This document shows, one piece after another, positions 1,377 to 54,363 of a DNA stretch of 64,000 nt (the stretch's first letter is position 1; each line of letters begins with the position of its first letter). Under the pieces are notes generated by a model that saw nothing but the letters and a program-made list of their open reading frames with translations, was not told the origin of the DNA and made no database searches. The stretch is from a bacterium (lineage in GTDB: Bacteria > Arandabacterota > Arandabacteria > Arandabacterales > Arandabacteraceae): NCBI GenBank assembly GCA_029933125.1, contig JAOZOU010000004.1, positions 200,879-264,878 of the forward strand, read 5' to 3'. Position numbers and translations under genes: made by a program.

Positions 1377-2143
1377 GGGGATTGAAGTTTTTTGCCATCA
1401 TCGTTGTCGTCGCCCTGGCTGCGATTGCTTTGCGAGGTGGACTGATTTCAAAGGCTGGGCTCGGCACCTGGGTGGCAGCTTTGCTAACGCTTGCCATCTT
1501 TAGCTTCCTATATAAAGACAATCCTATCTATAAACTGGCTGAGCATGTGTTCATAGGAGTGGCGGCTGGCTATTTTGTTGCTCTCGAGTACTGGAATGTT
1601 TTCCTTCCCAATCTCTGGGATCCCCTGAGTGAAGGCCTGCGCCAAAGTGCCCTGAGCCCATTTCCTCACTTTCCCAATATGATTCTACTCATCCCGTTTG
1701 CCCTGGGTATTCTGCTTTTTACGAGGTTTTTCCCAAAGGTGGCATGGTTGAGCCGATGGTCAATGGCTGCCATGATAGGTTCGTATTCGGGCTTGGCAAT
1801 TATTGGGGCTCTTCAAGGCGACCTTGTAGCTCAGATAAGAGCAAACATGCTTCCACTTTACTCCGAGCAAGCAGCCAGGGCTCTCGAAGGCGGACCATTC
1901 CTCTTCGGAATTCTTGAGCTTGTTCGCAATCCTCTCATCATTGTTGGTCTTCTCGCTACGCTTGTTTACTTCTTTTTCTCAAGAGAACACAGGGGTGGGC
2001 TGGGCATTGCTGCGCGGATTGGCATATGGTTCCTTATGATATCGTTTGGCGCGTCATTTGGGTATACGGTCATGAGCAGGGTATCGCTTCTGATCGGCCG
2101 TCTTCACTTCCTTTTGAGTGACTGGCTGGGGATAATAAGATGA
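1373..2143 (+). CDS. hypothetical polytopic membrane protein
   Basis: 256 aa with at least 6 hydrophobic helices. Overlap-coupled on both sides, at 1373-1376 and 2140-2143. Confidence 0.45.
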   Translation: MRGLKFFAIIVVVALAAIALRGGLISKAGLGTWVAALLTLAIFSFLYKDNPIYKLAEHVFIGVAAGYFVALEYWNVFLPNLWDPLSEGLRQSALSPFPHFPNMILLIPFALGILLFTRFFPKVAWLSRWSMAAMIGSYSGLAIIGALQGDLVAQIRANMLPLYSEQAARALEGGPFLFGILELVRNPLIIVGLLATLVYFFFSREHRGGLGIAARIGIWFLMISFGASFGYTVMSRVSLLIGRLHFLLSDWLGIIR

Positions 2144-2883
2144 AGAGGGGTGTCAAGCTCAAGTTGCTTCCTTACGCTATCTATGATGGTCTCAAAAACA
2201 TGAGGATTGATACCTACCTCCTTGAAATATGTGAAAGCGATCCCCGGTGTGGCTTCCTCAGATTCTACGGATGGGCTCATCCCACACTCTCCCTCGGACG
2301 CTTTGAAAAGACTGAGGTGATCGATGTGGAAAGGGCAGCTGAGGATGGTGTCGATATAGTGAGGCGCCCAACCGGTGGGAGAGTTGTCTTACACGGTGAT
2401 GACCTGACCTATGCAGTTGTTGTCCCCCTCAGGATCGGGACGAGTTTGCAGGAGATCTATGCAGGTATTTCAGAATGCCTCATGAGGGGATTGAGCTTGC
2501 TGGGTCTCGACCTGACTTTCGAAAAAGGCAGGTTGGCAAGAACCGATCTTCGAATCAAACCATGTTTCGCATCTGCAGCCAGATATGAGATTACCTGGCA
2601 GGGCAAGAAACTTGTAGGAAGCGCTCAGCGTGTTGGGAAGCAAGCTGTACTGCAGCATGGGAGCATTCCCATTGGAAGGGGATATCTCAAGGTTATTGAC
2701 TATATGAGATGCGATGACAGAGCTCGCTTGAGGCTGAGGAAGCAAATGGAGAAAAGCACCTGTTGTCTCAAGGGAATAGCACCAAACGAGTTTACTGCTG
2801 CTCAGGTTTCGAGCTTTATCCTGGAAACCTTCAGGGAGGTTTTTGATATTTTGCAGCCTATTTCGTTAGAGGGCAAAGTTTGA
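2140..2883 (+). CDS. lipoate-protein ligase / octanoyltransferase family protein (BPL/LPL catalytic domain, LipM/LplA-N-like)
   Basis: Contains the RRPTGGRVVLHGDDLTY motif (the RRxTGGxAVxH signature of the LipB/LplA family) plus a conserved Lys region (KKLVGSAQR). Length is 247 aa. Confidence 0.65.
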   Translation: MKRGVKLKLLPYAIYDGLKNMRIDTYLLEICESDPRCGFLRFYGWAHPTLSLGRFEKTEVIDVERAAEDGVDIVRRPTGGRVVLHGDDLTYAVVVPLRIGTSLQEIYAGISECLMRGLSLLGLDLTFEKGRLARTDLRIKPCFASAARYEITWQGKKLVGSAQRVGKQAVLQHGSIPIGRGYLKVIDYMRCDDRARLRLRKQMEKSTCCLKGIAPNEFTAAQVSSFILETFREVFDILQPISLEGKV

Positions 2884-5738: not shown

Positions 5739-5761
5739 AGACCGTTAGGGAGGGTCGAAGA

Positions 5762-7900: not shown

Positions 7901-7926
7901 GATAATTGAGGAAGGAGGATTTCGAG

Positions 7927-8904: not shown

Positions 8905-8905
8905 A

Positions 8906-11449: not shown

Positions 11450-11463
11450 AGGGGTGAGCGACA

Positions 11464-11871: not shown

Positions 11872-11880
11872 AGGTAGGCT

Positions 11881-12300: not shown

Positions 12301-12307
12301 GAGATGA

Positions 12308-12925: not shown

Positions 12926-12956
12926 GTGCACTCCTATTACACCTTCAAGTCTTGTA

Positions 12957-13010
12957 AGTTGCCCTCCTTCGTGGTATAGGTACGTTGAGGCATTCTAAAG
13001 GAGGGCAACT
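12957..13010 (+). promoter_or_regulatory. perfect 13-bp inverted repeat (AGTTGCCCTCCTT / AAGGAGGGCAACT) sequestering the SD and abutting the start codon of the downstream gene
   Basis: Arms at 12957-12969 and 12998-13010 with a 28-nt loop. The 3' arm is the AAGGAGG Shine-Dalgarno sequence and ends 1 nt before ATG 13011. Confidence 0.5.
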
Positions 13011-22699: not shown

Positions 22700-22807
22700 C
22701 AGGTCCCGACGTGTAAATTCTGCTAAAGAATGCAAACCCTCGGTCGATAGACACCTAGGAAACGTCAGTCAAGAGGTCCTGTATCTTTGTTGGAGGAGAG
22801 GTGTAAC

Positions 22808-25411
22808 ATGCGAAAACTTACTCCTATCTTTATGGTCGTATTGTGGCTCGCTTTCGCCTGTGGTCTCCAAGCGGGAACAACAGGGAAGATCGCAGGTATG
22901 GTAATTGATGCCGAAACCGGTGAGCCCCTCACTGCGGTAAACGTCACTGTCGAAGGTACGCATCTAGGTGGAATCAGCAACCTCGAAGGGCTTTATCACA
23001 TCGTAAATGTTCCACCTGGTACCTATTCAGTCAAGGCTTCAATGATGGGCTATCAGCCTCTTGTGGTTGATGGAGTTGTTGTCAATGCTGATTTCACAAC
23101 AACAGTTGATTTCCAGCTTGACCCCACAGTACTCGAGGTTGTTCCCGAAATTGTGGTTACAGCTGAGAGGCCGATGATAAGAAAAGACATGACTTCATCA
23201 ATCAGCGTGGTTGAGCATGATGAAATATCCATGCTTCCCATTGAGTCGCCCTTCGACATAGTCAGCTTCCAGGCAGGTGCTGCGCTTGATCGCAGGGGTA
23301 TCCATATCCGTGGAGGACGTGAGACTGAGATATCCTATGCCATCAACGGGGCGACAATTCTTGATCCTATTTTCTCGAGAGCTTCTGCGAGCTATGACGA
23401 ATCTGCAATTCAAGAAATGGTCATCCTGAGTGGGGGATTCACTCCAGAGTATGGAAATGCTCAATCAGGTATAGTGAATGTCATCACCAAAGAGGGTGGA
23501 CCGACTTTCAAGGGAGAAGTTGAAAAGCAATTCTATCTTCCTCTTGAGACCCTTTGGCAGGCTGCTGACGATGCGAAGAAGTATGACACGGGTTACAATA
23601 CAACCAAGCTTACCCTCAGCGGTCCAACCCCTTGGACAGATAAGCTGAGGTATTTCATCTCAGGTGAAACTTCCAAGTGGGACGATTGGGATCCCCATGT
23701 CTATGTTCTCCCCAATCAAGGTCGTGATCTCGATCAGGTCATCTGGAAGGTTACAGGCTTCCCTGGCCACAATGTCAAGCTCTTCAGTGAGGGACTTTTC
23801 TACTACACCAAGTTCAGGGTTTGGGATGCTCAGCGCCAGAAGATACCCGAGACCTTCCTTCAGTATAAGAGAAAAACACTTGTCAATCTCGTTGGCATGA
23901 GCCATATGGTAAGCCCGAGTACATATTATGATGTCTCCCTGTCGAGGTTTTCCACTTCCTATCATGTTGCTCAGCCAGGCAAGTGGTATGATATGAGCAA
24001 ATCCCAGGAGTGGAACACCACTCCTGCCGAGGAAGGCGGTGGTGGCTTAGATCTTCAGCCAGAATATGATGAGGACAACTTCATCGTAGCTGGAGATAAT
24101 CCCCTCTTTCATGACTCACAATCCACTGTTTATGGTTTCAGGGCAAGCCTTACAAGCCAGGTGAATGAACACCATCAACTCAAGGTCGGTGGTGAGGTTG
24201 ATCTCTACGACTCACGTCATCAGGAGGTCTATGCTCCAGCAGGTAACATCTACAGGAACGACTACAGGGTAACTCCAAGGTACTATGTTGGCTATCTACA
24301 GGATAAGATTGAGTACAGCGGGCTCATTGTAAACACAGGTCTTAGGCTGGATGTTTTTGATCCCAACTTTAAGTATCCTTCGGATCCAATCTATCCCTGG
24401 GATCCTTCAATACAGGTCCCTGGACCCGAGTGTGGAGGTCCGGACAATACCGAGCCTCCTCTTTGGAAGCTTAAAGACGCATCTGTTAAACTTCAGGTTA
24501 GCCCGCGTCTTGGTATTTCTCACCCTGTCTCCGAGAGAACCGTGCTTCACTTCACCTATGGCCACTACTTCCAGGTTCCGGCTTTCCGCTATCTGTACAC
24601 CAATACCAAGTACGACATGGGCGGGCATTGGCCGCTCATAGGTAACCCCAATCTTAAGCCGGAAAGAACCGTTTCCTACGAGGTTGGGCTTGAGCATCTG
24701 ATTGCTGAGGACCTCATGATAGACCTTACAGGTTTCTACAAGGACATTTATGATCTCATCTCAACTGTTGTGATAAATGATAGTCGTGATTCCGATACCC
24801 CACCCGATGCAACCGAGTACACAACCTACCGTAATACAGACTGGGGCAATGCGAGAGGCTTCGAGGTCACACTTCAGAAGAAGTTCAGAGAGGACTGGAT
24901 GGGAAGGCTCATCTATACTTTCATGGTTGCAAAGGGTAGAAGCTCGGATGTTCTCGAGGGCTACAGAAATCGCTTTGAGGGGAATGTACCACCTTCCAAG
25001 GAATATTATCTGGATTGGGATAGAAGGCACAATATAGTTGTCGACCTGGGCTACGGCAGGCGCGACAACTGGTCAGTGAATGTTCTCGTCAAATATGCCT
25101 CAGGTTCACCATATACTCCTGTTGAAAATACCAGGTCCGCTCAACCCGAGCAGAATACCGCAAGATTCCCTTCAACGTCCGTGGTCAATCTCAAGCTCTC
25201 CAAGGATTTCAATCTCTTTAACATGAGGGAGCAGGTTTTCCTGCAGGTTGAAAATCTCTTCAACAAGCGCAACCTTGTTGCCTTCGATGATGACAATACC
25301 GATCTGATGCGTCACCTGAGACTAACCGGTGAATATACCGGACCTTTCAATGATGTAACTGTCTATGGAGCACCGAGAGAGATAAAAGGAGGCATTAGAG
25401 TGCAGTTTTAG
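22808..25411 (+). CDS. TonB-dependent outer-membrane transporter with CarbopepD_reg-like N-domain (module copy 2)
   Basis: Paralog of 3036-5738. Signal peptide, GKIAGMVIDAETGEPL...GTYSVKASMMGY, plug (IHIRGGRETEI...SGIVNVITKEG), and a C-terminus ending in an aromatic residue (GIRVQF). Start moved to ATG 22808, which has SD GGAGGAGAGG upstream. Confidence 0.8.
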   Translation: MRKLTPIFMVVLWLAFACGLQAGTTGKIAGMVIDAETGEPLTAVNVTVEGTHLGGISNLEGLYHIVNVPPGTYSVKASMMGYQPLVVDGVVVNADFTTTVDFQLDPTVLEVVPEIVVTAERPMIRKDMTSSISVVEHDEISMLPIESPFDIVSFQAGAALDRRGIHIRGGRETEISYAINGATILDPIFSRASASYDESAIQEMVILSGGFTPEYGNAQSGIVNVITKEGGPTFKGEVEKQFYLPLETLWQAADDAKKYDTGYNTTKLTLSGPTPWTDKLRYFISGETSKWDDWDPHVYVLPNQGRDLDQVIWKVTGFPGHNVKLFSEGLFYYTKFRVWDAQRQKIPETFLQYKRKTLVNLVGMSHMVSPSTYYDVSLSRFSTSYHVAQPGKWYDMSKSQEWNTTPAEEGGGGLDLQPEYDEDNFIVAGDNPLFHDSQSTVYGFRASLTSQVNEHHQLKVGGEVDLYDSRHQEVYAPAGNIYRNDYRVTPRYYVGYLQDKIEYSGLIVNTGLRLDVFDPNFKYPSDPIYPWDPSIQVPGPECGGPDNTEPPLWKLKDASVKLQVSPRLGISHPVSERTVLHFTYGHYFQVPAFRYLYTNTKYDMGGHWPLIGNPNLKPERTVSYEVGLEHLIAEDLMIDLTGFYKDIYDLISTVVINDSRDSDTPPDATEYTTYRNTDWGNARGFEVTLQKKFREDWMGRLIYTFMVAKGRSSDVLEGYRNRFEGNVPPSKEYYLDWDRRHNIVVDLGYGRRDNWSVNVLVKYASGSPYTPVENTRSAQPEQNTARFPSTSVVNLKLSKDFNLFNMREQVFLQVENLFNKRNLVAFDDDNTDLMRHLRLTGEYTGPFNDVTVYGAPREIKGGIRVQF

Positions 25412-25426
25412 GACTGGAGGTTGGAA

Positions 25427-27313
25427 ATGAGAGCAATATGTGCCTATTTGATTATTATCTCAGTGCTGAGTGTTTCGACAACTGCCTTAGCCTGGGATGC
25501 GGACGCAGTCTCTAAGTTTGGCCCCCCGACATCGCAAAACCGCGAACGCGCCCTTGCCGCCGCTCCCTGTATTTCAGCTACTTCGAGATACACCATAGGT
25601 GACCTTTGGTTTCCCCAGATCTACACAGTTGGCTTGTGCCTCTACACGGGTTACTATCCTGGGTCATCTAATAACATGCAGATTTTTCAGACGGGCCCAT
25701 GGATGGGGGGCTATGCCGAGGATGGCGGAGGTGAACCCTGGACAGCGATCGGAACATTCGATCAGCTTGACTTCCTCATGTATGACAGCATCTGCAGCGG
25801 ATTCAATGTCTCAGAACCAGGGCAGAGCTCTGTCGATGTGGAAAGCACCTTCGATACTGCCTATTCACCACGCGATCTTGGCGTGGTTGTCACTCTTCGC
25901 TACATGATGTGGGACGATCCGAGGCTTGACGACTGTATCGTCATAAAGGCTGGAATTAAGTTCAGAAAGGCTATTGAGGATTTCTGGTTTGGATGGATGT
26001 CTGACTGTGACATCGGCAACAATGATTTGCCTGACTACTACTACGATGATCTCGTTGGCTATGATGAGACGAGAGGCGTTGCCTACATGTATGACGATGA
26101 CGGTGACCCAGCAATTGCTACAGATGCTAAGAGCAAATTGCTTTCCTCGGCACATGTCGGACAGGTTCTTCTGTCCGCACCGCCTCCCGGTGGAAGCATA
26201 CATGTGCCACCTGCAACCAATGTTTCCTGGGAGACATTTGCATGGTGGGACTGGAATAATGATGTGACAGGTGATGCGGCTGCCTACGAAAGAATGTGCC
26301 GGGGAACGATTAGCCCATATCCGCCCGAGGTACCCTTCGATTACAGGATGATGACCGCTGTTGGTCCTTACGATGTCGAAGCCGGTGATTCAGCAACATT
26401 CTACATCGCACTCGTTTTTGGAGAAGGTCTCGATGCCGAATACTGGGCACGCCGGAGCAAGATAGGTGGCGAGGTTTCCGACATGGGCTCACTGATCGAG
26501 CATGTTGAGAACATCAAAGATTTCTTTGCCTCCGGTCTTGTACTTGCTGATCCGGCGCCTCATCCGCCGATTCTTGAGGATCCACGCCTCAACGGAAGAA
26601 AGGCGACCCTGAGCTGGGAATCGGTTTCTGAAGAGGATGACGACTTCGCAGGCTACAGAGTGTATCGAAGCCTTGTCTCGAATGTTGGGCCTTGGGATCT
26701 TCTCGCTGACTTTGCTGGTAGACCTTTTGTTCACACCTATGAAGATACACTAAGAATTGGATTCCCAACTTTCTACCTTGTCACAGCATATGATTTGGGT
26801 GGAAACGAATCCAATAAGGGCAGTGCTGTAACAAAGACCCTCGGAGGAATCTATGCTACCACTGTGCCTTCAGACTATGAGGGTGACTGTGAAAGTCTTT
26901 GCGAGGATCAGTGCCAGGATTGTCAGGAATGCTATGATCAATGCCTTGAGAAATGTATGCAGGCAAAGCGAGCAGCAGCCCTTGACAAAATCCTGGTAGC
27001 ACCTAACCCCTACAGAGGAAGCGCAGATTGGGAAAGGCTTGATTACGAGGGGCGTATTGCGTTCTACAATCTCCCCAGGCGTTGCACAATTTATATCTAC
27101 ACGATAACTGGTGAACTCGTTGACGTCGTATATCACAACATGCCTGGTGATGATACACCCGATCCTGAGGAAAGTGAAACAGGTGGTGAAAGGTGGGACA
27201 TGATTACCTCAAATGGGCAATCGATTGCCAGTGGCATATACATCTATCGAGTTACAAGTCCAGAATATGGTGAGAAAATCGGTAAGTTTGCGGTCATAAG
27301 AGGTGAACGCTAA
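25427..27313 (+). CDS. secreted acidic protein with Fn3-like domain, Cys-rich segment and T9SS C-terminal sorting domain (module copy 2 cargo)
   Basis: Signal peptide and shared motifs with 5762-7900 (DCDIG/DADIG, YMYDDDGD/YMYDYPGGDDGD). Fn3-like segment (GYRVYRS...FYLVTAYDLGGNES), Cys cluster CESLCEDQCQDCQECYDQCLEKC, and CTD (LVAPNPYRG...TIYIYTITGELV...GIYIYRVTS...KFAVIRGER). Confidence 0.7.
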   Translation: MRAICAYLIIISVLSVSTTALAWDADAVSKFGPPTSQNRERALAAAPCISATSRYTIGDLWFPQIYTVGLCLYTGYYPGSSNNMQIFQTGPWMGGYAEDGGGEPWTAIGTFDQLDFLMYDSICSGFNVSEPGQSSVDVESTFDTAYSPRDLGVVVTLRYMMWDDPRLDDCIVIKAGIKFRKAIEDFWFGWMSDCDIGNNDLPDYYYDDLVGYDETRGVAYMYDDDGDPAIATDAKSKLLSSAHVGQVLLSAPPPGGSIHVPPATNVSWETFAWWDWNNDVTGDAAAYERMCRGTISPYPPEVPFDYRMMTAVGPYDVEAGDSATFYIALVFGEGLDAEYWARRSKIGGEVSDMGSLIEHVENIKDFFASGLVLADPAPHPPILEDPRLNGRKATLSWESVSEEDDDFAGYRVYRSLVSNVGPWDLLADFAGRPFVHTYEDTLRIGFPTFYLVTAYDLGGNESNKGSAVTKTLGGIYATTVPSDYEGDCESLCEDQCQDCQECYDQCLEKCMQAKRAAALDKILVAPNPYRGSADWERLDYEGRIAFYNLPRRCTIYIYTITGELVDVVYHNMPGDDTPDPEESETGGERWDMITSNGQSIASGIYIYRVTSPEYGEKIGKFAVIRGER

Positions 27314-27334
27314 TCTCGGTTAGGAGGTTGGATC

Positions 27335-28318
27335 ATGAGACTTAAGCTTGTTCTGGGCGCAGTCCTGATTTTGATTTTGGCGACATGCGTCTTCGGGATG
27401 CAGAACAAGGTTGGCACAGCCGGCGCGCTCTTTCTCAAGATTGGCATGGATGTCAGAGCGGCTGCAATGGGAGAGGCAAGTGGAGCACTTGTTGGAGACG
27501 CCTCGTGTGCATTTGGTAATCCCGCTGGCCTTGCAGGTATTGCCACTAAACAGATATTCATCACCGACACCGAATGGATTGCTGATATAAGGCTTCTTGG
27601 GGGAGCTTATGCCTTTCCTTTTGGCCTCTCAAGTGTGATTGCTTTGAGCGGCGTTTGTGTTGACTACGGTTCGATGCCTATGGTTAGAGAGGCTGAGGCT
27701 GACGCTGTGGTTGAGACCTTCAATCCCAAAGATATTGCTGTCGGGATCTCCTATGCCAGAAGATGGACAAATCGCCTTCTTGTCGGAGGTTCGGCCAAAT
27801 ACATCGATCAGGCTATAGCTGATTATCACTCCCGGGGCATTGCCTTTGACTTCGGCACCATCTACTACACTGGTTTCAGAACGTTAAGACTTGCCATGTC
27901 CACAAGCAACTTTGGACCTGATATGAAGTTTGATGGGACCTACATTGACAAGTATTACATCGGGACAGCATATGTGGAAACGCAGAAGGAATTCGGTACC
28001 TACGATCTTCCGCTAAACTTCAGGATTGCCCTTGCATACGATTTCGATATATCGTCTGGCTCAAAAGTCACAGTTGCTCTTGACGCAACTCATCCTAACG
28101 ACTATTCGGAAAGATTGCACTTTGGGGCTGAATATTCCTGGGATGGAACATTCTTCCTGAGAAGTGGATACACTGTCAATGCTGAGGAGATGGGCTTCTC
28201 CGCCGGCTGTGGTGCGAAGATTTCCACATCCATGGGCGCTGCAAGCTTCGATTACGCCTACACTGATTTCGGAGTCTTCGATGGTGTCCATCACTTTGCT
28301 TTAGGGATTTGCTTCTAA
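27335..28318 (+). CDS. PorV/PorQ-family outer-membrane beta-barrel protein, dedicated paralog (module copy 2)
   Basis: Signal peptide plus GTAGALFLKIGMDVRAAAMGEASGALVGDASCAFGNPAGLAGI. About 327 aa with a C-terminal aromatic residue (LGICF). SD TAGGAGG upstream. Confidence 0.6.
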   Translation: MRLKLVLGAVLILILATCVFGMQNKVGTAGALFLKIGMDVRAAAMGEASGALVGDASCAFGNPAGLAGIATKQIFITDTEWIADIRLLGGAYAFPFGLSSVIALSGVCVDYGSMPMVREAEADAVVETFNPKDIAVGISYARRWTNRLLVGGSAKYIDQAIADYHSRGIAFDFGTIYYTGFRTLRLAMSTSNFGPDMKFDGTYIDKYYIGTAYVETQKEFGTYDLPLNFRIALAYDFDISSGSKVTVALDATHPNDYSERLHFGAEYSWDGTFFLRSGYTVNAEEMGFSAGCGAKISTSMGAASFDYAYTDFGVFDGVHHFALGICF

Positions 28319-28321
28319 CGG

Positions 28322-28360
28322 TGTGGGGCGTCTCACAGGGGCGCCCCACAAATTCTCTCC
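28322..28360 (+). terminator. putative intrinsic terminator after module 2 (stem TGTGGGGCG / CGCCCCACA)
   Basis: 9-bp GC-rich stem, extendable, followed by a weak T-containing tail (AAATTCTCTCC). Located 4 nt after the PorV-like stop. Confidence 0.4.
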
Positions 28361-28426
28361 CACCGCTTAACTCTCGTGCTTGACTCGCTTGCTGTAGTAT
28401 GGTAGTAGTCTCGAGAGGAGGGGTTT

Positions 28427-28891
28427 ATGTATGTTTTGAGGCACGGGCAGAATCCACTCTATCAGGCTGTCAGACTTGGTCTGCCGAATCTATGCTATAC
28501 CTGTGGCATATGTGTTGGGGATTGCCCTGCTGCGCGTTTCTCTGATGACTTCAATCCACGTCAGATATTCCTGAGAGTATCCCTTGGTATTGCTGATGGC
28601 CTCATTGCGGAACAATCCCCAATCTGGAAGTGCACAACTTGCTACACATGTGCTGAAAGATGTCCTGCTGGAGTCAAGCCTGTTGAGGTCATCATTGCCC
28701 TGAGGAATATGTGCTTCCAGGAGGGTATCGTTCCTCATCAGGTAAGCAAGATCCACCAGGCGGTTGTTACAAAGGGGATTGTAAGTGCCCTAACTGAAAC
28801 CATTTTGAGGCGTCGCCGAGAGTTAGGCTTACCTGAGGTTAGTGAAGACTTAGGCGCTATAGTAAAGAGTGTGATCGGTGAGGATGGTTGA
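28427..28891 (+). CDS. heterodisulfide reductase subunit C-like 2x[4Fe-4S] protein
   Basis: Two CxxCxxCxxxCP clusters (CYTCGICVGDCP, CTTCYTCAERCP). 154 aa. Confidence 0.7.
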   Translation: MYVLRHGQNPLYQAVRLGLPNLCYTCGICVGDCPAARFSDDFNPRQIFLRVSLGIADGLIAEQSPIWKCTTCYTCAERCPAGVKPVEVIIALRNMCFQEGIVPHQVSKIHQAVVTKGIVSALTETILRRRRELGLPEVSEDLGAIVKSVIGEDG

Positions 28892-29735
28892 AAAGAGATA
28901 CAAGTTCTTTCCGGGATGCCTTGCACGTGTCAAGCTGCCTCACATTGAGAAGTCAGTAAGGACAGTGCTCGAAGCAGTTAGGGTCGAGCTGGTTGATGTT
29001 AATGAGTTCACGTGCTGTCCGGACCCCGTTGTCTTTAGATCTGCATCAAGGCTAGAGTGGTTGCTTCTTGCAGGTCATAACCTCTCACTCGACGGGGGGG
29101 ATCCGATTTTGACCCTGTGCCCTGGGTGCGCATCATCCCTGGCTGAGGCCTCCTTTGTTTTGAAAAATGAGATGGAAACAGCACGTCGTGTCACAGAAGC
29201 TCTTAAGTTGAACCATGAATTCATAATCCCACAGGTGAGTCATTTCTTGAAAGTACTCGCTGGCGAGGAAATCCTTGAGAGCATAAAGGGGATGGTTAAG
29301 CGCGATCTAAGTGGTTTGAGGGTTGCAACCCATTATGGCTGCCATCTTGTGAGACCGTCTTTTGCTGTTGGTTTTGACGATCCTGAAAAGCCAAAATCAC
29401 TCGATGACGTAGTTGCTGCAACTGGTGCTATGGTGGTAGAATACGAGGACAAGATGCTTTGCTGTGGGCGTCCTGCAATAGACGAAGAGACTTCAAGAGC
29501 GATCCTGGAACACAAGTTGGAATGTCTTAGGGATGCGAGCTGTGACATCCTTGTGGTTGCCTGCCCATTCTGCTTTGAGCAATTTGACCTTGGGCAAGTA
29601 GTTCTTGCAAGAAAGAAGGGCAGGGATTACAATCTACCTATTCTCTATGTAAGCCAGCTCATAGAAATTGGAATGGGTATGAGTGGAGAAGCGAGCTGGA
29701 AATACCATCGCATTAAACCTCATAAATTACTTTAA
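28878..29735 (+). CDS. heterodisulfide reductase subunit B-like protein (two CCG domains)
   Basis: Two CCG-domain Cys patterns (EFTCCPDP...CPGC and MLCCGRP...CPFC). 285 aa. Overlaps the HdrC-like stop. Confidence 0.7.
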   Translation: MRMVEKRYKFFPGCLARVKLPHIEKSVRTVLEAVRVELVDVNEFTCCPDPVVFRSASRLEWLLLAGHNLSLDGGDPILTLCPGCASSLAEASFVLKNEMETARRVTEALKLNHEFIIPQVSHFLKVLAGEEILESIKGMVKRDLSGLRVATHYGCHLVRPSFAVGFDDPEKPKSLDDVVAATGAMVVEYEDKMLCCGRPAIDEETSRAILEHKLECLRDASCDILVVACPFCFEQFDLGQVVLARKKGRDYNLPILYVSQLIEIGMGMSGEASWKYHRIKPHKLL

Positions 29736-29740
29736 GTACC

Positions 29741-31123
29741 ATGGATAACCGCCCTGATTTATTGGTAATTGGAGGAGGCGTTGGGGGCTACATCGCAGCC
29801 CTGAGGGCAGCTTCTTCTGGCATGCGTGTGGCTCTCGTTGAGCGCGATCTCGTCGGTGGCACATGTCTCAACGTTGGATGCATTCCGACAAAAGCTCTCC
29901 TTGAGAGTGCAAGAATCCTGCGGCTGAGTCAGCGAGCGGGTGACTTTGGTATAGCTTTGGGCAAGCCAGCCTTTGATGTGTCAGAAGCTGTGGGACGCTC
30001 GAGAAGAATCGTGGAAACGCTACGCAAGGGGGTTGAGAGTCTTCTCAGGGCTAGGAAGGTTGAGATTGTGCGTGGAAATGCCAGGCTTAGGGATAGCAGA
30101 AGGGTGGAGGTGGAGAGTGGGACTACAACCAGTGAGATCGAAGCACATTATATTGTGATAGCCACAGGCTCATCCTGGATCAGCATTCCGGGCATCGAGC
30201 CAGATGGCATACGTGTGATAACCAGTGACCATGCTCTTTTCCCTGATGAGATTCCCGCCTCGATGGTGATTGTTGGCGCTGGAGCCGTAGGATGTGAATT
30301 TGCTGAGATCTATTCAGCATTTGGGACCAAGGTCACCTTGATAGAGATGATGGGGAGTATTCTGCCTGGGGAAGATAAGGAACTTGCTCGCAGGCTTGAG
30401 ACAGCCCTTAAGCGCAAAGGCATAGAAGTGCTGACATCAACCAAGGTTAGGCGTATTGCCGGAAATTCCAGAGGCTTGGTTGTTGAAACAGAAAATGGGA
30501 GAGGTATCGAGGCAACGAAGGTGCTTCTGGCTGTTGGACGAAAATCCAATGTGGATGGGATTGGTCTTGAGGAGGCAGGTGTTGATTTCAGTGCTAAAGG
30601 GATAGCAGTGGATAGCACCATGAAGACAAACGTTGACGGCATTTTTGCAATCGGTGATGTTACGGGGCGATACATGCTAGCTCATGTTGCAATGAATCAG
30701 GCAATGGTTGCCATAGAAAATATGCTCGGACGTCATTCATCTTTCAACTATGAGAGGGTTCCCCGTTGTGTTTATACAGAGCCGGAATACGCTGCTGTTG
30801 GCAAGACTGAGGAAATGGCTAGGCAGGAAGGAGCGAGTGTGGAAGTTAAGCGAGTTCGTCTGGGGCGGATCGGCAGGGCGCTTACACTGGGAGAGACCTT
30901 CGGGCTTGCAAAGATCGTGATAGACTCTGCCGAAAAAAGACTCTTAGGATTACAGATACTTGCGCCCCATGCTTCGGAGTTCATAACCGAGGCGACTCTT
31001 GCTCTGGGCAATGAACTTGGACTGAGGGCGCTTGGAGAATCAATTCATCCTCATCCAACACTTTCGGAGATTGTCTGGGAGAGTGCACTTTTAGCCCTTG
31101 GAAAGGCGATACATGCTGATTGA
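29741..31123 (+). CDS. lpdA: dihydrolipoyl (dihydrolipoamide) dehydrogenase, E3 flavoprotein disulfide reductase
   Basis: FAD-binding GGGVGGY, redox-active disulfide GGTCLNVGCIPTK, a second NAD-binding GxGxxG (VGAGAVGCEFAE), and a C-terminal His-Pro interface motif (HPHPT). Confidence 0.85.
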   Translation: MDNRPDLLVIGGGVGGYIAALRAASSGMRVALVERDLVGGTCLNVGCIPTKALLESARILRLSQRAGDFGIALGKPAFDVSEAVGRSRRIVETLRKGVESLLRARKVEIVRGNARLRDSRRVEVESGTTTSEIEAHYIVIATGSSWISIPGIEPDGIRVITSDHALFPDEIPASMVIVGAGAVGCEFAEIYSAFGTKVTLIEMMGSILPGEDKELARRLETALKRKGIEVLTSTKVRRIAGNSRGLVVETENGRGIEATKVLLAVGRKSNVDGIGLEEAGVDFSAKGIAVDSTMKTNVDGIFAIGDVTGRYMLAHVAMNQAMVAIENMLGRHSSFNYERVPRCVYTEPEYAAVGKTEEMARQEGASVEVKRVRLGRIGRALTLGETFGLAKIVIDSAEKRLLGLQILAPHASEFITEATLALGNELGLRALGESIHPHPTLSEIVWESALLALGKAIHAD

Positions 31124-31185: not shown

Positions 31186-31797
31186 TTGGGTGAGATAAAC
31201 AGGCTTTACAAGGCAGATCAATCGAAGGTGATTGATGGGGTATGTGCTGGTTTTGCAGAGTTCATTGGTATTGATGCTTTCTGGGTGAGGGTGGGCTGGG
31301 CTCTGCTTACCCTGCTCGGTGGTATCGGGATAGTGGCTTATCTGCTTGCGATGTATCTTTTTCCCCGAAAGCAGAATGAGGGTAGCTCGTCTGTGAAAGC
31401 CGAAGGCCATCCAAGGATGGCAATAGGTGGTGTCATTCTCCTCGCTGTCGGTGTGCTTATTCTCCTGAGGCTCTTTGGAATTGTTCACTATGATTTCTGG
31501 GCCGCATGGGATATTGCTTGGTCAATTCTCTGGCCACTTTCTCTCATAGGTGGTGGAGCAATTCTTTTGCTCTCATACTGGCGGCAGAGTCGAGAGGGTG
31601 ATATGAAGCTCCAAAGGAGCCTAGATGACAAGAGGATATTGGGTGTCTGCGGGGCTCTTGGAAGGTTCTACAAAATCGATCCTAATGTTGTAAGATTCAT
31701 TTTTGCTCTTGCGATAATTCTATCGCGAGGCATCGCACTTATCGTCTATGTAACAATGGTAATTCTCATACCCCATGAGGCACGGGAAGCGAAGTGA
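31186..31797 (+). CDS. PspC-domain membrane protein (two PspC domains)
   Basis: KVIDGVCAGFAEFIGIDAFWVRVGWALLTLLG and KRILGVCGALGRFYKIDPNVVRFIFALAIILS are both PspC-domain signatures. TTG start. Confidence 0.6.
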   Translation: MGEINRLYKADQSKVIDGVCAGFAEFIGIDAFWVRVGWALLTLLGGIGIVAYLLAMYLFPRKQNEGSSSVKAEGHPRMAIGGVILLAVGVLILLRLFGIVHYDFWAAWDIAWSILWPLSLIGGGAILLLSYWRQSREGDMKLQRSLDDKRILGVCGALGRFYKIDPNVVRFIFALAIILSRGIALIVYVTMVILIPHEAREAK

Positions 31798-35427: not shown

Positions 35428-35631
35428 ATGCCTGATGTAAAGGTGAATAAAGAGCGTTGCAAAGGTTGTGAGCTTTGTATAGTTTTCTGTCCCAAGCATT
35501 CGCTCGAGCTCTCAGCGAAGTTCAATTCAAAGGGCTACCATTACCCTGAATTTAGCCATCCTGACACATGTACGGGGTGCGCTATCTGCGGGCGAATGTG
35601 TCCAGAGGTTGCCCTGGAGATTTACAAATAG
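35428..35631 (+). CDS. korD: 2-oxoacid:ferredoxin oxidoreductase delta subunit (2x[4Fe-4S] ferredoxin)
   Basis: CKGCELCIVFCP and CTGCAICGRMCP. 67 aa. Confidence 0.7.
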   Translation: MPDVKVNKERCKGCELCIVFCPKHSLELSAKFNSKGYHYPEFSHPDTCTGCAICGRMCPEVALEIYK

Positions 35632-35647
35632 GAAAGGTAGGCGAGTA

Positions 35648-36745
35648 ATGGCTCAAGAGCGTTCACTCATGAAAGGAAATGAAGCAATCGGTGAAGCCGC
35701 TATTAGAGCTGGTTGCCGCTTCTATGCAGGTTATCCTATAACCCCTCAAAATGAGCTTACCGAGTATATGTCAAGGCGGATGCCTGAAGTGGGTGGCACC
35801 TTTATCCAATCTGAAAGTGAGTTGGCCGCTATCAATATGGTTTATGGTGCAGCCGCTGCCGGGGCGCGTGCCATGACTTCTTCTTCAGGTCCGGGCATAA
35901 GTCTCAAACAAGAAGGTATTTCCTACCTCTGCGGTGCTGAATTGCCATGTTTCTATGCCAACATAGTGAGGGGCGGGCCTGGGCTTGGCAATATCGCTCC
36001 AGCACAGTCCGATTATTTTCAGGCGACTAGGGGCGGTGGGCATGGAGACTATCGCGTGATAGTTCTTGGTCCCAGCACTGTTCAGGAGCTTGTTGACCTA
36101 ACCATGCTTGGTTTTGAGCTGGCAGATCGCTACCGAAATCCAGCGATGATTCTAGGAGATGGTATCCTTGGTCAGATGATGGAACCTGTGGTGATGAGTG
36201 ATGCCATCGAATATGATGCTTCCCCAAAGAAGGAGTGGGCTTTAGGTAGCTCCGAAGGTAGATCCAAGCATCTTATAACCTCGGTCAGACTGGCACCTGG
36301 AACACTTGAGAAGCACAACATGCACCTTCTTGAAAAATACCGCAAAGTAGAAGAAGATGAAGTACGCTACGAACTCTACGAAGTTGATGATGCTGATGTT
36401 GTGCTTGTTGCTTATGGCACTGCAGCACGGGTTGCTAAGGCGGCTGTTGCAATGTCGAGACAGAATGGTGGTATCAAGCTTGGTCTTGTAAGGCCCATAA
36501 CCCTCTGGCCATTCCCAAAGACTGTAATCTCCGACATTGCAAAGGATAAGCCTGACATATTGGTTGTTGAGATGAGTCTGGGACAAATGTATGAAGATGT
36601 TCTCCTGAGTGTCTGTGGCAAAGCCAAGGTTTCGCTGTTAGCCCATACTGGTGGTGGACTGCCTTCTGAGGCGGAAATAGTGGAAACAGCAAAGCGAGCG
36701 AAGTCTTCTAATGAAGCAATAGAGGTGTATCCATCGGTTGATTAG
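35648..36745 (+). CDS. korA: 2-oxoacid:ferredoxin oxidoreductase alpha subunit
   Basis: KorA/PorA/VorA-like. ATG 35648 lies after the ferredoxin stop. Confidence 0.8.
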   Translation: MAQERSLMKGNEAIGEAAIRAGCRFYAGYPITPQNELTEYMSRRMPEVGGTFIQSESELAAINMVYGAAAAGARAMTSSSGPGISLKQEGISYLCGAELPCFYANIVRGGPGLGNIAPAQSDYFQATRGGGHGDYRVIVLGPSTVQELVDLTMLGFELADRYRNPAMILGDGILGQMMEPVVMSDAIEYDASPKKEWALGSSEGRSKHLITSVRLAPGTLEKHNMHLLEKYRKVEEDEVRYELYEVDDADVVLVAYGTAARVAKAAVAMSRQNGGIKLGLVRPITLWPFPKTVISDIAKDKPDILVVEMSLGQMYEDVLLSVCGKAKVSLLAHTGGGLPSEAEIVETAKRAKSSNEAIEVYPSVD

Positions 36746-37524
36746 TGCTGGAGGTGAAAGTTTTGAAAAAGATTTTTGGAAAGCCTGAGAGCCTGAGCGA
36801 CAAACAGTTTACCTACTGTCCAGGGTGTGGTCATAGCCTCATTCATAGACTTACAGCAGAGGTTATCGATGAGCTTGGGATCATGCCGAGATGCATAGGG
36901 GTTGCCTCAGTAGGTTGTTCTGTTTTCGCTGATGAGTATTTTAATTTTGACTTCATCCAGGCTGCCCACGGGAGGGCACCAGCTGTTGCAACCGGCATTA
37001 AGCGGGTAGCTCCCGAATGTGTTGTCTTTACCCATCAGGGGGACGGTGATCTCGCCTCGATAGGGACAGCCGAGATCATTCACAGTGCTAATCGTGGTGA
37101 GAAGATCACTGTAATTTTTGTTAACAATGCAATCTATGGGATGACAGGTGGGCAGATGGCTCCTACAACCCTTGTTGGCATGAAGACGACGACATCGCCT
37201 CTTGGGCGTAGACCTGAGACAGCTGGCTATCCCATAAGGGTATGCGAGTTGCTGAAAGGCTTTGATGGAGTAGCCTATCTTGAAAGAACTGCGGTAAATA
37301 ACCCTGCAAACGTCATGAAGACTAAGCGAGCTCTTAAGAGAGCTTTTGAAACCCAGCTCGAAGGATTGGGTTTTTCCCTTGTTGAGATTCTATCCCAGTG
37401 TCCAACTGGCTGGGGGATGCTTCCCAAGGATGCTGTAGAATGGGTCGATAAGAATATGAAGCCATACTTTGCTCTCGGTGTTTTCAAGGACATAAGGGCT
37501 GAGGAGCCTCAGCACGTAACATGA
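36745..37524 (+). CDS. korB: 2-oxoacid:ferredoxin oxidoreductase beta subunit (TPP-binding); start uncertain (36745 GTG or 36766 TTG)
   Basis: CPGCGH Cys motif and the TPP-binding GDGD...NN pattern (HQGDGDLASIGTAEIIHSANRGEKITVIFVNNAIYGMTGGQ). Confidence 0.8.
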   Translation: MLEVKVLKKIFGKPESLSDKQFTYCPGCGHSLIHRLTAEVIDELGIMPRCIGVASVGCSVFADEYFNFDFIQAAHGRAPAVATGIKRVAPECVVFTHQGDGDLASIGTAEIIHSANRGEKITVIFVNNAIYGMTGGQMAPTTLVGMKTTTSPLGRRPETAGYPIRVCELLKGFDGVAYLERTAVNNPANVMKTKRALKRAFETQLEGLGFSLVEILSQCPTGWGMLPKDAVEWVDKNMKPYFALGVFKDIRAEEPQHVT

Positions 37525-37540
37525 AAGAGAGGGGGCTTCG

Positions 37541-38077
37541 ATGACAACGAAGTTGATAATGGCTGGCTTTGGTGGACAAGGGGTTGTCCTCATGGGTACG
37601 CTGCTCTCGTACTCAGCGATGGTCCAGGGAAAGCACACGACGTTCTTCCCCTCATACGGTGCTGAGATGCGAGGCGGGACAGCCAATTGCTCAGTAATAG
37701 TTTCCGATGAAGAGATCCCTTCCCCTGTTGTTAGCGTACCGGATTGCGTCGTGGCCATGAATATAGCGTCTCTGGGTAAGTTTGAGGGTAGGGTGAGGGA
37801 GGGTGGTGTGATATTTATCAACTCATCACTGGTTGACAAGCATGTTTCACGCAAGGACGTCGAGGAAGTACGAGTGCCAGCCAATGAGATAGCTGAGGAG
37901 TTAGGAGCCTCAAGGGCTGCTAACATGGTCATGCTCGGAGCTGTAATAAAGAAGACCCGTGCAGTTGAACTGCAGTCAGCAATCAACAGCCTTGAGAAAG
38001 TACTCTCGGAAAGAGCCATGGCTTATCTCGACGTAAACAAGAAGGCTCTCGAACGCGGTTTCAACGAGATACCATAG
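37541..38077 (+). CDS. korG: 2-oxoacid:ferredoxin oxidoreductase gamma subunit
   Basis: MTTKLIMAGFGGQGVVLMGTLL...GAEMRGG is a typical gamma subunit. Confidence 0.75.
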   Translation: MTTKLIMAGFGGQGVVLMGTLLSYSAMVQGKHTTFFPSYGAEMRGGTANCSVIVSDEEIPSPVVSVPDCVVAMNIASLGKFEGRVREGGVIFINSSLVDKHVSRKDVEEVRVPANEIAEELGASRAANMVMLGAVIKKTRAVELQSAINSLEKVLSERAMAYLDVNKKALERGFNEIP

Positions 38078-44410: not shown

Positions 44411-44419
44411 GGGGATACG

Positions 44420-53493: not shown

Positions 53494-54363
53494 TTGGCAA
53501 GAAGGTTACCTTCCTGGCTTAAAACAGATCTTCCAGACGCTCGCTCGCTTGCGCGTATCAGGCAAGCAGTGGAAGAGGGCGGTCTCAATACGATTTGCTA
53601 CGAGGCGAGATGCCCGAACAAGGCTGAGTGTTTTCGTGAGAATTCGGTTACGTTCCTCATACTTGGAAGACATTGTACGCGTGCGTGCCGCTTCTGCAAT
53701 GTCCAAACTTGCCAACCCGAGCCTGTGGAGCCGGATGAGCCAACCAAGCTTCTCGAAGCGTGCTTCAGCCTTGGACTGGACTATGTGATAATAACATCGG
53801 TTTCGAGAGATGATCTATCCGATTATGGATCATCCCATTTCGCCAGGTGCGTTACAACCTTGCGGCCATATGTCGGGGCCATTGAATTGCTTACTCCTGA
53901 TTTTATGGGTAGATTTGGACTGGTGGATGAAATGATCGAAGCTGGCACTGACGTTTTTGGTCATAACATTGAAACGGTTGAGCGACTCTATCCGTTTGTG
54001 CGGGATAGAGCTAGCTACAAACGCTCGCTTGGTCTGCTGGAATATGTAAAATCTCACTTTTCAAACATCATTACCAAGAGTGGGCTACTCCTTGGTCTTG
54101 GCGAAAACCTGGAGGAGGTGAGGTGCACACTGAAACAGATGCATGAAGCCGGCTGCGACATAGTAACAATTGGTCAATACATGCAACCTTCGAGGCTTCA
54201 TGTTCCAGTTAGCGACTACTTTGCCCCGAGCATCTTTGATGAACTCAGGGTGTTCGCAGAAGAACTTGGAATGATCGCGATTTGTGGACCCAAGGTTCGT
54301 AGCTCCTTTCGTGCAAGAGCAGCATACGATGCCGTGAAATCAAGGAGGTCCAAATGCGAATAG
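53494..54363 (+). CDS. lipA: lipoyl synthase
   Basis: Auxiliary cluster CYEARCPNKAEC plus radical SAM CTRACRFC. Confidence 0.85.
   Translation: MARRLPSWLKTDLPDARSLARIRQAVEEGGLNTICYEARCPNKAECFRENSVTFLILGRHCTRACRFCNVQTCQPEPVEPDEPTKLLEACFSLGLDYVIITSVSRDDLSDYGSSHFARCVTTLRPYVGAIELLTPDFMGRFGLVDEMIEAGTDVFGHNIETVERLYPFVRDRASYKRSLGLLEYVKSHFSNIITKSGLLLGLGENLEEVRCTLKQMHEAGCDIVTIGQYMQPSRLHVPVSDYFAPSIFDELRVFAEELGMIAICGPKVRSSFRARAAYDAVKSRRSKCE

Follow-up and report, generated by a model that had tools for sequence, protein, structure and literature searches.

A conserved hdrC-hdrB-lpd operon joins an HdrA-less HdrCB pair to a dihydrolipoyl dehydrogenase in one uncultivated Eisenbacteria-related lineage

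Introduction

HdrB-type enzymes occur widely in bacteria, but except for the CoM-S-S-CoB of methanogens, the disulfides that they reduce physiologically are for the most part not known. The link proposed between Hdr-like enzymes and lipoamide is based to date on the complex clusters for sulfur oxidation of the sHdr-LbpA type; in the model of the latter, the Hdr-like enzyme reduces the LbpA-bound lipoamide and an E3 passes the electrons to NAD+ (Cao et al. 2018, PMC6067878), a DLDH gene being linked to hdr clusters also in Sulfolobales (PMC6067878; Liu et al. 2014 cited there). The present locus, in which an hdrC-like and an hdrB-like gene directly precede a gene for dihydrolipoyl dehydrogenase (lpd), raises the question of whether the three products act on one common dithiol/disulfide, form one electron-transfer enzyme or are just neighbours. 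The whole stretch of DNA analysed, 64,000 nucleotides in length, is referred to here as the window. No description of an hdrCB-lpd unit was found in the literature searched.

Organization of the operon

The three genes lie on the + strand and form a single compact unit at positions 28427-31123, consisting of hdrC (28427..28891; 154 aa), hdrB (28878..29735; 285 aa, with an alternative ATG start at 28884) and lpd (29741..31123; 460 aa). The open reading frames, motifs and profiles confirm the preliminary description of this DNA, i.e. an HdrC-like gene with two [4Fe-4S] motifs overlapping an HdrB-like gene with two CCG domains, and a full-length E3/Lpd behind them. The hdrC/hdrB overlap of 14 nt and the 5 nt between the stop of hdrB and the start of lpd are the spacing typical of co-translated partners, and the trio is in all probability a co-translated operon, confined to one uncultivated lineage related to Eisenbacteria. 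The genes as called in the relatives overlap by 8-38 nt or lie 2 nt apart.

Upstream of the operon, a GC-rich hairpin of 12 bp (28319..28349, + strand), located directly 3' of the stop codon of a porV/porQ-family gene, folds with a dG of -25 kcal/mol (z-score -4.3; 0 of 200 shuffled sequences fold as well) and, albeit with a weak U-tract, may serve as a terminator-like insulator. Just 5' of the hdrC ATG (28380..28424, + strand), there is a strong Shine-Dalgarno sequence, GAGAGGAGGGG (28414-28424), preceded by a promoter-like TTGACT (28380-28385), the latter being a weak indication, read by eye and absent from the sites listed by the consensus promoter scan. As far as lpd is concerned, it has no Shine-Dalgarno sequence of its own. 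A separate lpd promoter was rejected, since the 5-nt gap leaves no room for it and promoter-like matches within hdrB occur in the consensus scan at the level of chance (6 found versus 5.6 expected).

Sequence features of the three proteins

All the metal- and redox-site residues of the three products are intact. The HdrC-like protein has the two CxxCxxCxxxCP motifs for [4Fe-4S] clusters (C23/26/29/33 and C69/72/75/79) and the gene position directly 5' of hdrB that characterize HdrC; it matches Fer4_8/9/17 (Pfam), scores 108 bits with the HdrC model TIGR03290 (under the cutoff of 160), finds its best solved relatives among methanogen HdrC proteins (E about 1e-20 to 1e-22) and shares 54-66% identity across all the related loci.

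The two CCG domains of the HdrB-like protein (PF02754, 94.8 bits in two stretches) contain ten cysteines—C14, 46, 47, 81, 84, 155, 195, 196, 229 and 232—that are 100% conserved in both the clade and the outgroup and correspond to the ligands of two non-cubane [4Fe-4S] sites, five per domain (C...CC...CxxC). Its best solved relatives are the methanogen HdrB proteins (E 1e-54 to 1e-56), the scores remaining under the cutoffs of both TIGR03288 (224.5 bits versus 345) and NF041780 (102 bits versus 450); judged from these scores, the protein is related to the CoM-S-S-CoB enzyme without being its equivalog. The clade to which it belongs exhibits 32 clade-specific substitutions, the concentration of which beside the CCG motifs suggests that the substrate has changed. 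It should be pointed out that the CCG domain pair is also shared by SdhE (type E succinate:quinone reductase/MFR), TfrB, GlcF, GlpC, LutA and LdhH, and the preliminary description had allowed for an SdhE, GlcF or LutA subunit of a known dehydrogenase. The scores with the other CCG families are, however, far lower than the 224 bits for HdrB (SdhE 100, LdhH 65, TfrB 52, GlpC 25 and GlcF 22 bits), and the matching catalytic partners, i.e. SdhA/B, GlcD/E, GlpA/B and LutB/C, are absent from the neighbourhood. The SdhE, GlcF, LutA, GlpC and TfrB readings were rejected on both grounds.

The third protein scores well above the cutoff for dihydrolipoyl dehydrogenase (TIGR01350, 513.1 bits versus 408.8), as the preliminary description had led one to expect. 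It carries GGTCLNVGCIPTK and HPHPTLSE, that is, the redox-active C42/C47 disulfide (CxxxxC) and the C-terminal His438-Glu443 dyad, together with an NAD-type Rossmann motif. Among the solved E3 structures (E 1e-88 to 3e-94), those from Thermus and Geobacillus are the closest, the former being the best (E 3e-94). Since C42, C47, His438 and Glu443 are kept in 81 of 81 members of the Lpd clade, the dithiol-disulfide chemistry is under selection. The clade has, in addition, 14 clade-specific positions, among them W146, W446 and Cys185, the last of which is invariant and lies in the GxGxxG helix that binds NAD. The columns matching Asp344 and Glu431 of the G. stearothermophilus E3, which we take to be the acidic residues that bind the peripheral subunit-binding domain of E2, are variable in the clade as well as in the nearest Lpds outside it. 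With its TIGR01350 score above the cutoff and all the catalytic residues, the Lpd resembles the E3/L-protein of the 2-oxoacid dehydrogenase complexes and glycine cleavage, from which it differs in being coupled translationally to hdrB and in having no E1, E2 or GcvHTP genes beside it or elsewhere in the 64-kb window.

Linkage in the relatives

The linkage was evaluated in informative relatives, i.e. 16 non-redundant loci with an HdrB at least 48% identical and a contig continuing past hdrB. The lpd gene directly follows hdrB in all 16, as a conserved unit in accordance with the single operon assumed previously, whereas it is found beside hdrB in none of the 152 loci with an HdrB of at most 43% identity. 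The association of hdrCB with lpd is not due to chance, and neither an own promoter of lpd nor its separation from hdrCB in relatives, both considered in the preliminary description, was observed. Clustering at 50% leaves the HdrB clade with one isolated representative out of 1.84 billion, and the HdrB and Lpd trees are congruent. No hdrCB pair without lpd occurs within the clade. The opposite case is represented by one relative (L170), from which hdrCB has been deleted, the lpd remaining intact; this Lpd can thus also work alone and is not dedicated to HdrCB. A fusion of HdrB with Lpd was not found among the best 150 of the 1.84 billion representatives, the longer matches there being out-of-clade fusions of the HdrC-HdrB type.

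The counts alone might also be obtained if the Lpd were a housekeeping L-protein or E3, e.g. of glycine cleavage, HdrCB had its partners elsewhere (HdrA, MvhADG) and the adjacency were a frozen accident. This is in line with the order of the genes between the GWxTD gene and those for the oxoacid oxidoreductase, which is conserved across the lineage, with the pyrG of the window having homologues on many of the same contigs, and with the lpd retained on its own in L170. Moreover, the Lpd "clade" may just be the orthologue of the lineage, because PyrG shows a comparable identity step at the lineage boundary. With all examples in one lineage of strongly conserved gene order, the adjacency is weaker functional evidence than the counts suggest. 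Some methanogens have hdrA at a distance from hdrCB. The published KO tables for the related Joyebacterota (PMC13271369 supplement) list one DLD and one hdrB/hdrC together with hdrA and mvhADG per genome, but this is context only, since those MAGs were not matched to the HdrB clade and no accession of the loci analysed here appears in PMC13271369. On the other side, hdrB and lpd have continued to overlap at stop and start, or to lie no more than 5 nt apart, over 48-65% protein divergence, and the trio is intact even where both flanks are replaced: in L001 and L010, it is preceded by a GAF kinase and followed by a response regulator, which take the places of the porV-like gene and pspC of the window. 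Together with hdrCB never lacking lpd within the clade and no HdrB outside it adjoining an Lpd, this makes a purely accidental neighbourhood unlikely.

Concerning the loci outside the clade, 80 of them have HdrA/MvhD, the Bathyarchaeia possessing an FdhA-like gene instead, so that every other HdrB clade has a physically associated electron-input module beside hdrCB. The translationally coupled Lpd occupies the same position, and it could serve an HdrCB-Lpd complex as the input subunit that binds NAD(H), in place of HdrA or FdhA, the electrons passing from NADH via the FAD of Lpd to the [4Fe-4S] clusters of HdrC, the non-cubane clusters of HdrB and finally a (hetero)disulfide; such a complex would be a non-bifurcating NADH:heterodisulfide reductase. 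A parallel is the Bathyarchaeial hdrC-hdrB-fdhA-like module (L011, L096 and L097), which is likewise an HdrA-less hdrCB with an overlapping dehydrogenase gene and has an HdrB (42% identity) among the closest outside the clade. Further points for this reading are the diaphorase activity of Lpd enzymes and the invariant clade-specific residues of the Lpd clade, including W146, C185 and W446. The Bathyarchaeial partner is, however, a molybdopterin oxidoreductase that itself contains an Fe4S4 domain and is therefore an obvious electron wire, whereas the Lpd has no Fe-S cluster, and transfer of electrons from a class I disulfide oxidoreductase to an Fe-S subunit is not known. In such an arrangement, the full conservation of the CxxxxC and the His-Glu dyad would be unnecessary and HdrCB redundant, since a disulfide oxidoreductase could reduce the disulfide alone. 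Finally, the lpd in L170 is intact and retains all the clade-specific residues despite the deletion of hdrCB, so these cannot be assigned to HdrCB docking and may just mark the lineage instead of being adapted to HdrCB. A direct transfer of electrons from Lpd to HdrCB is thus considered unlikely.

Genes for lipoate assembly and other genes of the window

A lipoyl synthase gene, lipA (53494..54363, + strand), encodes a protein with the Radical_SAM and LIAS_N domains that scores above the cutoff of TIGR00510 (339.2 bits versus 310.25), and its presence indicates that the organism makes lipoylated protein(s). The window also contains a gene (2140..2883, + strand) for a 247-aa lipoyl/octanoyl transferase-like protein of the LplA/LipB family (PF21948, 94.8 bits; PF03099, 52 bits), the NCBIfam LplA models scoring far under their cutoffs. 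Both genes had been overlooked in the preliminary description. They strengthen rather than weaken the idea of lipoamide being involved.

As already noted from the sequence by that description, the window contains no E1/E2, glycine-cleavage or lipoyl-carrier gene, according to the Pfam/NCBIfam scans of its open reading frames and the synteny annotation; the flanks of the related loci are also free of E1, E2 and GcvH/T/P components. In agreement, phmmer searches with the E. coli GcvH and the AceF lipoyl domains as probes gave no GcvH- or lipoyl-domain match at E<=10 in the window and within 10 kb in nine related loci.

The neighbours of the trio are outer-membrane, PspC and housekeeping genes. 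The genes for a VorB-type 2-oxoacid:ferredoxin oxidoreductase (alpha, beta and gamma; 35609..38077, + strand; NF005507, 528 bits versus the cutoff of 399) are found 4.5 kb downstream, outside the operon and syntenic in the window-type loci, and this enzyme is a plausible source of reduced ferredoxin. Nothing in the window points to a CoM/CoB pathway, and the host organisms look like anaerobic heterotrophs, not sulfur oxidisers.

The gene for a PspC-domain membrane protein (31186..31797, + strand) is a downstream neighbour conserved only in the window-type loci, following lpd in L002-L004, L009, L087-L089 and L170-L172 and, as called, even overlapping it in L004. It could mark an envelope-stress context, in which electrons from NADH would reach HdrCB via Lpd and a lipoyl or dithiol carrier, HdrCB working in the oxidising direction and passing them on to a protective acceptor. 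The precedent is the Lpd-DlaT-AhpD-AhpC relay of M. tuberculosis, in which Lpd and a lipoyl group serve a non-metabolic acceptor. Nevertheless, pspC is absent after lpd in L001 and L010. No peroxiredoxin, rubrerythrin or AhpD-like gene is present near the trio, and no regulator links the genes. A role in stress defence is thus very improbable, and the PspC-domain protein is probably outside the core module.

Comparison with known Hdr systems

The likeness to the sHdr systems with their lipoate-binding protein, pointed out in the preliminary description, is apt, since the sHdr model also joins an Hdr-like enzyme, lipoamide and an E3 (PMC6067878). In both cases, proteins of the HdrB/HdrC type with non-cubane clusters are tied genetically to lipoate biology and a dihydrolipoamide dehydrogenase. 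The sHdr-LbpA systems are nevertheless defined by shdrC1B1AHC2B2 with lbpA and sulfur-transferase genes, whereas here there is a single hdrCB pair and no LbpA-like open reading frame in the window and the nine loci. Within 10 kb, the trio is without HdrA, a second HdrC2B2 pair, LbpA, DsrE/TusA/rhodanese and sLpl(AB)/LipS1/S2. The lbpA gene is always adjacent in the sHdr systems, whereas no lipoyl carrier lies near hdrCB-lpd; the canonical LipA is used here; and the nearest solved and genomic relatives of the HdrB are of the methanogen and Bathyarchaeial types.

The bifurcating complexes—the methanogen HdrABC-MvhAGD, and the bacterial HdrABC/MvhD, including FlxABCD-HdrABC—share the HdrC/HdrB folds and the cluster ligands with the proteins studied here. 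In the classical HdrABC and Mvh-Hdr systems, HdrA and usually also MvhD are encoded with hdrCB, whereas no in-clade locus has either of them in the flanks covered, which extend to 10 kb at most; further differences are the Lpd in the adjacent position, the NCBIfam scores under the cutoffs and the 32 HdrB substitutions.

Proposed role of HdrCB and Lpd

Based on the above results, HdrCB and Lpd may act on one shared dithiol/disulfide, probably that of a lipoyl protein encoded elsewhere, and link Fe-S carriers to NAD(H); this reading is favoured, albeit tentatively and with somewhat less than even confidence. It builds on the gene content, the intact active sites, the tight coupling, the clade-specific linkage and the genes for lipoate assembly.

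HdrC and HdrB would form an HdrA-less disulfide-reductase module, in which electrons pass from the two [4Fe-4S] clusters of HdrC to the pair of non-cubane clusters in HdrB, Lpd being in all probability a fully competent dihydrolipoyl dehydrogenase. The substrate that we infer to be shared is most likely the lipoyl group on a carrier encoded elsewhere, for the making of which the same genome has LipA and an LplA-like enzyme, or, less likely, a small dithiol. HdrCB would exchange single electrons between the disulfide and an Fe-S partner, which might be ferredoxin reduced by the 2-oxoacid:ferredoxin oxidoreductases or else an HdrA with its gene at another site, whereupon the two electrons of the resulting dithiol would be exchanged with NAD+ by Lpd. 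The net result would be that Fe-S carriers and NAD(H) are connected by a soluble route, possibly working in either direction, and the three proteins may form a stable complex.

A shared dithiol is favoured by lpd being intact where hdrCB has been deleted, which is easier to reconcile with an Lpd acting on a dithiol of its own than with a subunit for electron input only. Further points in its favour are the linkage specific for the clade, with the trio intact between differing flanks and the HdrB and Lpd trees in accord; the invariant catalytic residues of Lpd and cysteines of HdrB, with the changed residues near the CCG motifs; and the LipA and LplA-family enzyme in the window, together with the sHdr precedent (PMC6067878). 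It is weakened by the lack of a lipoyl-domain or GcvH-like gene in the window and within 10 kb in the nine related loci, by the restriction to a single lineage, by the Lpd without HdrCB in L170 and by the lack of an HdrB-Lpd fusion among the best 150 representatives. Its more specific form, according to which HdrCB-Lpd would be a minimal soluble oxidoreductase from ferredoxin (or HdrA/hydrogenase) to NAD(H), with a protein-bound lipoamide as the converter between one- and two-electron steps, is rather doubtful.

Conclusions

With three genes, a clade-specific linkage and HdrCB paired with a bona fide lipoamide dehydrogenase alone, hdrC-hdrB-lpd is the simplest natural system for a biochemical test of the link between Hdr and lipoamide. 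If Lpd passed its electrons directly to HdrCB, this would be the first instance of a class I disulfide oxidoreductase acting as the electron-input subunit of an Fe-S enzyme. If lipoamide served as the converter, this would be the first HdrB outside methanogens and sulfur oxidisers with a physiological disulfide named from genomic evidence, and the Hdr-lipoate partnership would be extended from sulfur oxidisers to anaerobic heterotrophs. Although it is no proof, the pairing of HdrCB and Lpd suggests that electrons move by a new path, via a lipoamide-type dithiol, between Fe-S carriers and NAD(H). If the relay via the shared dithiol is true, it would represent a new soluble route between the ferredoxin and NAD(H) levels in anaerobes and provide a function for the "orphan" Lpd in organisms relying on ferredoxin-dependent oxoacid oxidoreductases.

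The hdrC-hdrB-lpd genes and their transcription

The three genes lie on the forward strand, exactly where the preliminary description—made without database searches—had placed them: the HdrC-like gene at 28427-28891 (154 aa), the HdrB-like gene at 28878-29735 (285 aa), and lpd, coding for a dihydrolipoyl dehydrogenase (Lpd, E3), at 29741-31123 (460 aa). The HdrC-like protein, matching 4Fe-4S dicluster families, carries the motif CxxCxxCxxxCP twice (C23/26/29/33 and C69/72/75/79) and is nearest to HdrC (TIGR03290, 108 bits, cutoff 160), solved methanogen HdrC structures matching it with E 1e-22. In the HdrB-like protein, two CCG domains supply 10 of the 10 cysteines binding the two non-cubane [4Fe-4S] clusters; it reaches 224 bits with TIGR03288 (cutoff 345), and its best solved relatives are methanogen HdrB (E 1e-54 to 1e-56). 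The iron–sulfur motifs and CCG domains described earlier are thus all in place. The Lpd, with TIGR01350 at 513 bits (above the cutoff of 408.8), possesses the redox-active CLNVGC and the His-Glu motif HPHPTLSE, its nearest solved structure being the Thermus E3 (E 3e-94). Judged by their defining residues, the proteins are members of the HdrC, HdrB and Lpd families, although the HdrB/C pair scores below the equivalog cutoffs for the CoM-S-S-CoB enzyme. Family profile scores ruled out the identity of the HdrB-like protein as SdhE, GlcF, LutA, GlpC or TfrB, the first three having been named in the preliminary description as what would undercut its reading.

The gene hdrC shares its last 14 nt with hdrB, and only 5 nt separate the hdrB stop from the start of lpd, which has no Shine-Dalgarno sequence of its own; this spacing and the TIGR01350 score agree with the reported overlap followed by a full-length Lpd. 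HdrCB and Lpd are two intact disulfide-active enzymes made together. Between the stop of a porV/porQ-family gene and hdrC there is a perfect 12-bp GC hairpin (28319-28349; dG -25 kcal/mol, z -4.3) with only a weak U-tract 3' of it, followed by the box TTGACT and, ahead of hdrC, a strong ribosome-binding site (AGGAGG). This arrangement makes the trio look like a single transcript starting at hdrC. A separate promoter for lpd, the possibility raised against an operon, did not emerge from a consensus scan, promoter-like matches inside the trio occurring at chance frequency only.

Conservation of the linkage in relatives

Relatives of HdrB were collected by a search of 5.8 billion proteins, scans of GTDB species genomes and JGI metagenome contigs, and exact-protein look-ups, the linkage being tallied by tblastn across all fetched loci. 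In every locus with an HdrB at least 48% identical to that of the window (in-clade), HdrC is found just 5' of hdrB, and an Lpd, 51-64% identical, follows immediately 3' in 16 of the 16 non-redundant relatives whose contig continues past hdrB; one additional in-clade contig, not counted among these 16, stops within hdrB. The linkage that the preliminary description proposed to check is therefore conserved. In contrast, none of the 152 loci with an HdrB at most 43% identical (out-of-clade) has an Lpd by tblastn; 80 of them contain HdrA plus MvhD, the neighbours of the classical Hdr complex that are missing beside the hdrCB of the trio. The Lpd homologues parallel those of HdrB, with ~86 clusters at 51-65% identity before a drop to ≤49%, 35 of them on contigs equal in length to that of an in-clade HdrB, taken here as a proxy for identity of the contig. 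In a 50%-identity library of 1.84 billion representatives, the HdrB clade forms one representative (375 bits), the next match having 216 bits. Given this clean split, with which the other observations agree, the linkage appears to exceed chance.

In three out-of-clade loci from Bathyarchaeia (L011, 9504-12921, as well as L096 and L097), which rank among those nearest to the Lpd-linked HdrB outside its clade, a gene for a 677-aa FdhA-like molybdopterin oxidoreductase (domains Fe4S4, Molybdopterin and Molydop_binding) overlaps hdrC-hdrB. With FdhD upstream and no HdrA in L011, the arrangement resembles a formate (or similar):heterodisulfide module lacking HdrA. In the WOR-3 loci L005/L006, both HdrA genes (4149-7253 and 10964-13363) are split by an in-frame TGA in DC(T/A)(A/I)*ILGPK, and are most simply read as selenocysteine-containing HdrA mis-called as two genes.

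It should be noted that all trio carriers belong to one lineage. The PyrG of the window has ~58 close clusters (74-86% identity, then ≤72%), one labelled Candidatus Eisenbacteria and many on contigs matching trio-bearing ones in length. The gene order of this lineage is very stable, a GWxTD protein being followed by a TonB-dependent receptor, then a PorV-like protein and, further on, a 2-oxoacid:ferredoxin oxidoreductase. The window itself has two paralogous outer-membrane cassettes (3036-10474 and 18630-28318), each with a CarboxypepD_reg TonB-dependent receptor, a 630-712-aa protein without family match, a PorV/PorQ-family protein and an associated GWxTD-domain protein, the second ending directly 5' of the hdrC operon. 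Such frozen synteny weakens adjacency as evidence of function and speaks for hdrCB and lpd being neighbours without a shared function, as does the fact that hdrA can be unlinked from hdrCB, as it is in some methanogens. The same reading is favoured by KO tables of related Joyebacterota, listing per genome hdrA, mvhADG, one DLD and one hdrBC, in MAGs not matched to this clade (PMC13271369). A split class I (Fe-S) fumarase with separate alpha and beta subunit genes, present in the window at 43568-44980 (+) and reported in 30/30 Joyebacterota MAGs (PMC13271369 Table S4), is a hint of the taxa to which the window is close. Mere neighbourhood seems rather improbable, since the trio remains intact in two relatives (L001 and L010) in which both flanks differ (GAF kinase 5', response regulator 3'), and its start-stop coupling persists over 48-65% protein divergence, both of which argue for a unit. 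In two further loci (L008 and L092), an L001-like trio is joined to window-like upstream genes; in the relatives, neighbouring trio genes, as called, share 8-38 nt or have 2 nt between them.

One locus, L170 (GCA_964356335.1), keeps the synteny of the window but has neither hdrC nor hdrB, nor remnants of them, its lpd lying 270 nt 3' of the porV-like gene. Its Lpd nests within the Lpd clade in the tree and retains all clade-specific residues, so that the loss of hdrCB is secondary. The dependence is one-way: lpd can persist alone, and in-clade hdrCB was never found without lpd. In the same locus (contig CAYHHI010000002.1, 8744-13598), pspC is kept along with lpd and is followed by an inserted gene for a 480-aa polyferredoxin of the Fer4_5 type.

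The main rival for the function of the unit is a direct transfer of electrons from NADH through the Lpd FAD to HdrC, HdrB and an unspecified disulfide, which would fit the electron-input modules (HdrA or FdhA-like) neighbouring hdrCB in all other clades; it is unlikely, given that Lpd lacks an Fe-S cluster, that HdrCB would become redundant and that lpd stands alone in L170.

Conserved residues

The residues C42, C47, H438 and E443 of Lpd are invariant in 81 clade sequences, and 14 positions are unlike those of the nearest non-clade Lpds, including W146, R218, L374/G375, W446 and an invariant Cys185 in the NAD-binding GxGxxG helix. In the alignment, the HdrB clade keeps all cluster ligands and exhibits 32 clade-specific substitutions, clustered beside the CCG motifs (51-57, 82, 198-206, 228-234), consistent with a substrate other than that of the HdrA-linked enzymes. 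An extra cysteine a few residues past the second CC pair (window residue 200) is 91% conserved in HdrA-linked bacterial HdrB; this position is Ser or Ala in the Lpd-linked clade and Gly in the methanogen HdrB reference.

Lipoate, ferredoxin and the possible function

Two genes unmentioned in the preliminary description are lipA for lipoyl synthase (53494-54363, +; TIGR00510, 339 bits, above the cutoff of 310) and one for a divergent LplA/LipB-family catalytic-domain protein (2140-2883, +; PF21948, 94.8 bits) that comes after three membrane-protein ORFs without family match. Their presence implies that the organism lipoylates at least one protein. Genes for lipoyl-domain proteins, GcvH/T/P, E1 and E2 were found neither in the window, as previously observed, nor near the trio in relatives. 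A VorB-type 2-oxoacid:ferredoxin oxidoreductase 4.5 kb downstream of the trio makes reduced ferredoxin a plausible currency. Just 3' of the oxidoreductase genes and before RNase E/G—an order kept in related loci—lies a gene (38121-40607, +) for an 828-aa TIGR03960-family B12-binding radical SAM protein fused to a TIGR03936 domain.

We infer that HdrCB and Lpd share one dithiol/disulfide. In the tentatively favoured reading, electrons would pass in either direction between an Fe-S partner, HdrCB, a lipoamide-type disulfide, Lpd and NAD(H): the HdrC clusters would link the partner (ferredoxin, or an HdrA encoded elsewhere) to HdrB, which would reduce or oxidise the disulfide, the resulting dithiol being equilibrated with NAD(H) by Lpd. 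It is preferred over its rivals because the Lpd disulfide centre is under selection, Lpd persists without HdrCB and the window encodes enzymes of lipoate assembly. It is in line with the proposal published for sHdr-LbpA, lipoamide being reduced there by an Hdr-like enzyme and NADH made by E3; in Sulfolobales, hdr clusters have a linked DLDH gene (PMC6067878). All accessory genes of the sHdr-LbpA system are missing at the trio. A relay serving stress defence is a minor, highly improbable option. Full-text literature searches turned up no account of an hdrCB-lpd unit. With its function inferred, the trio is a test bed of three genes for finding out what the HdrB enzymes of bacteria reduce.
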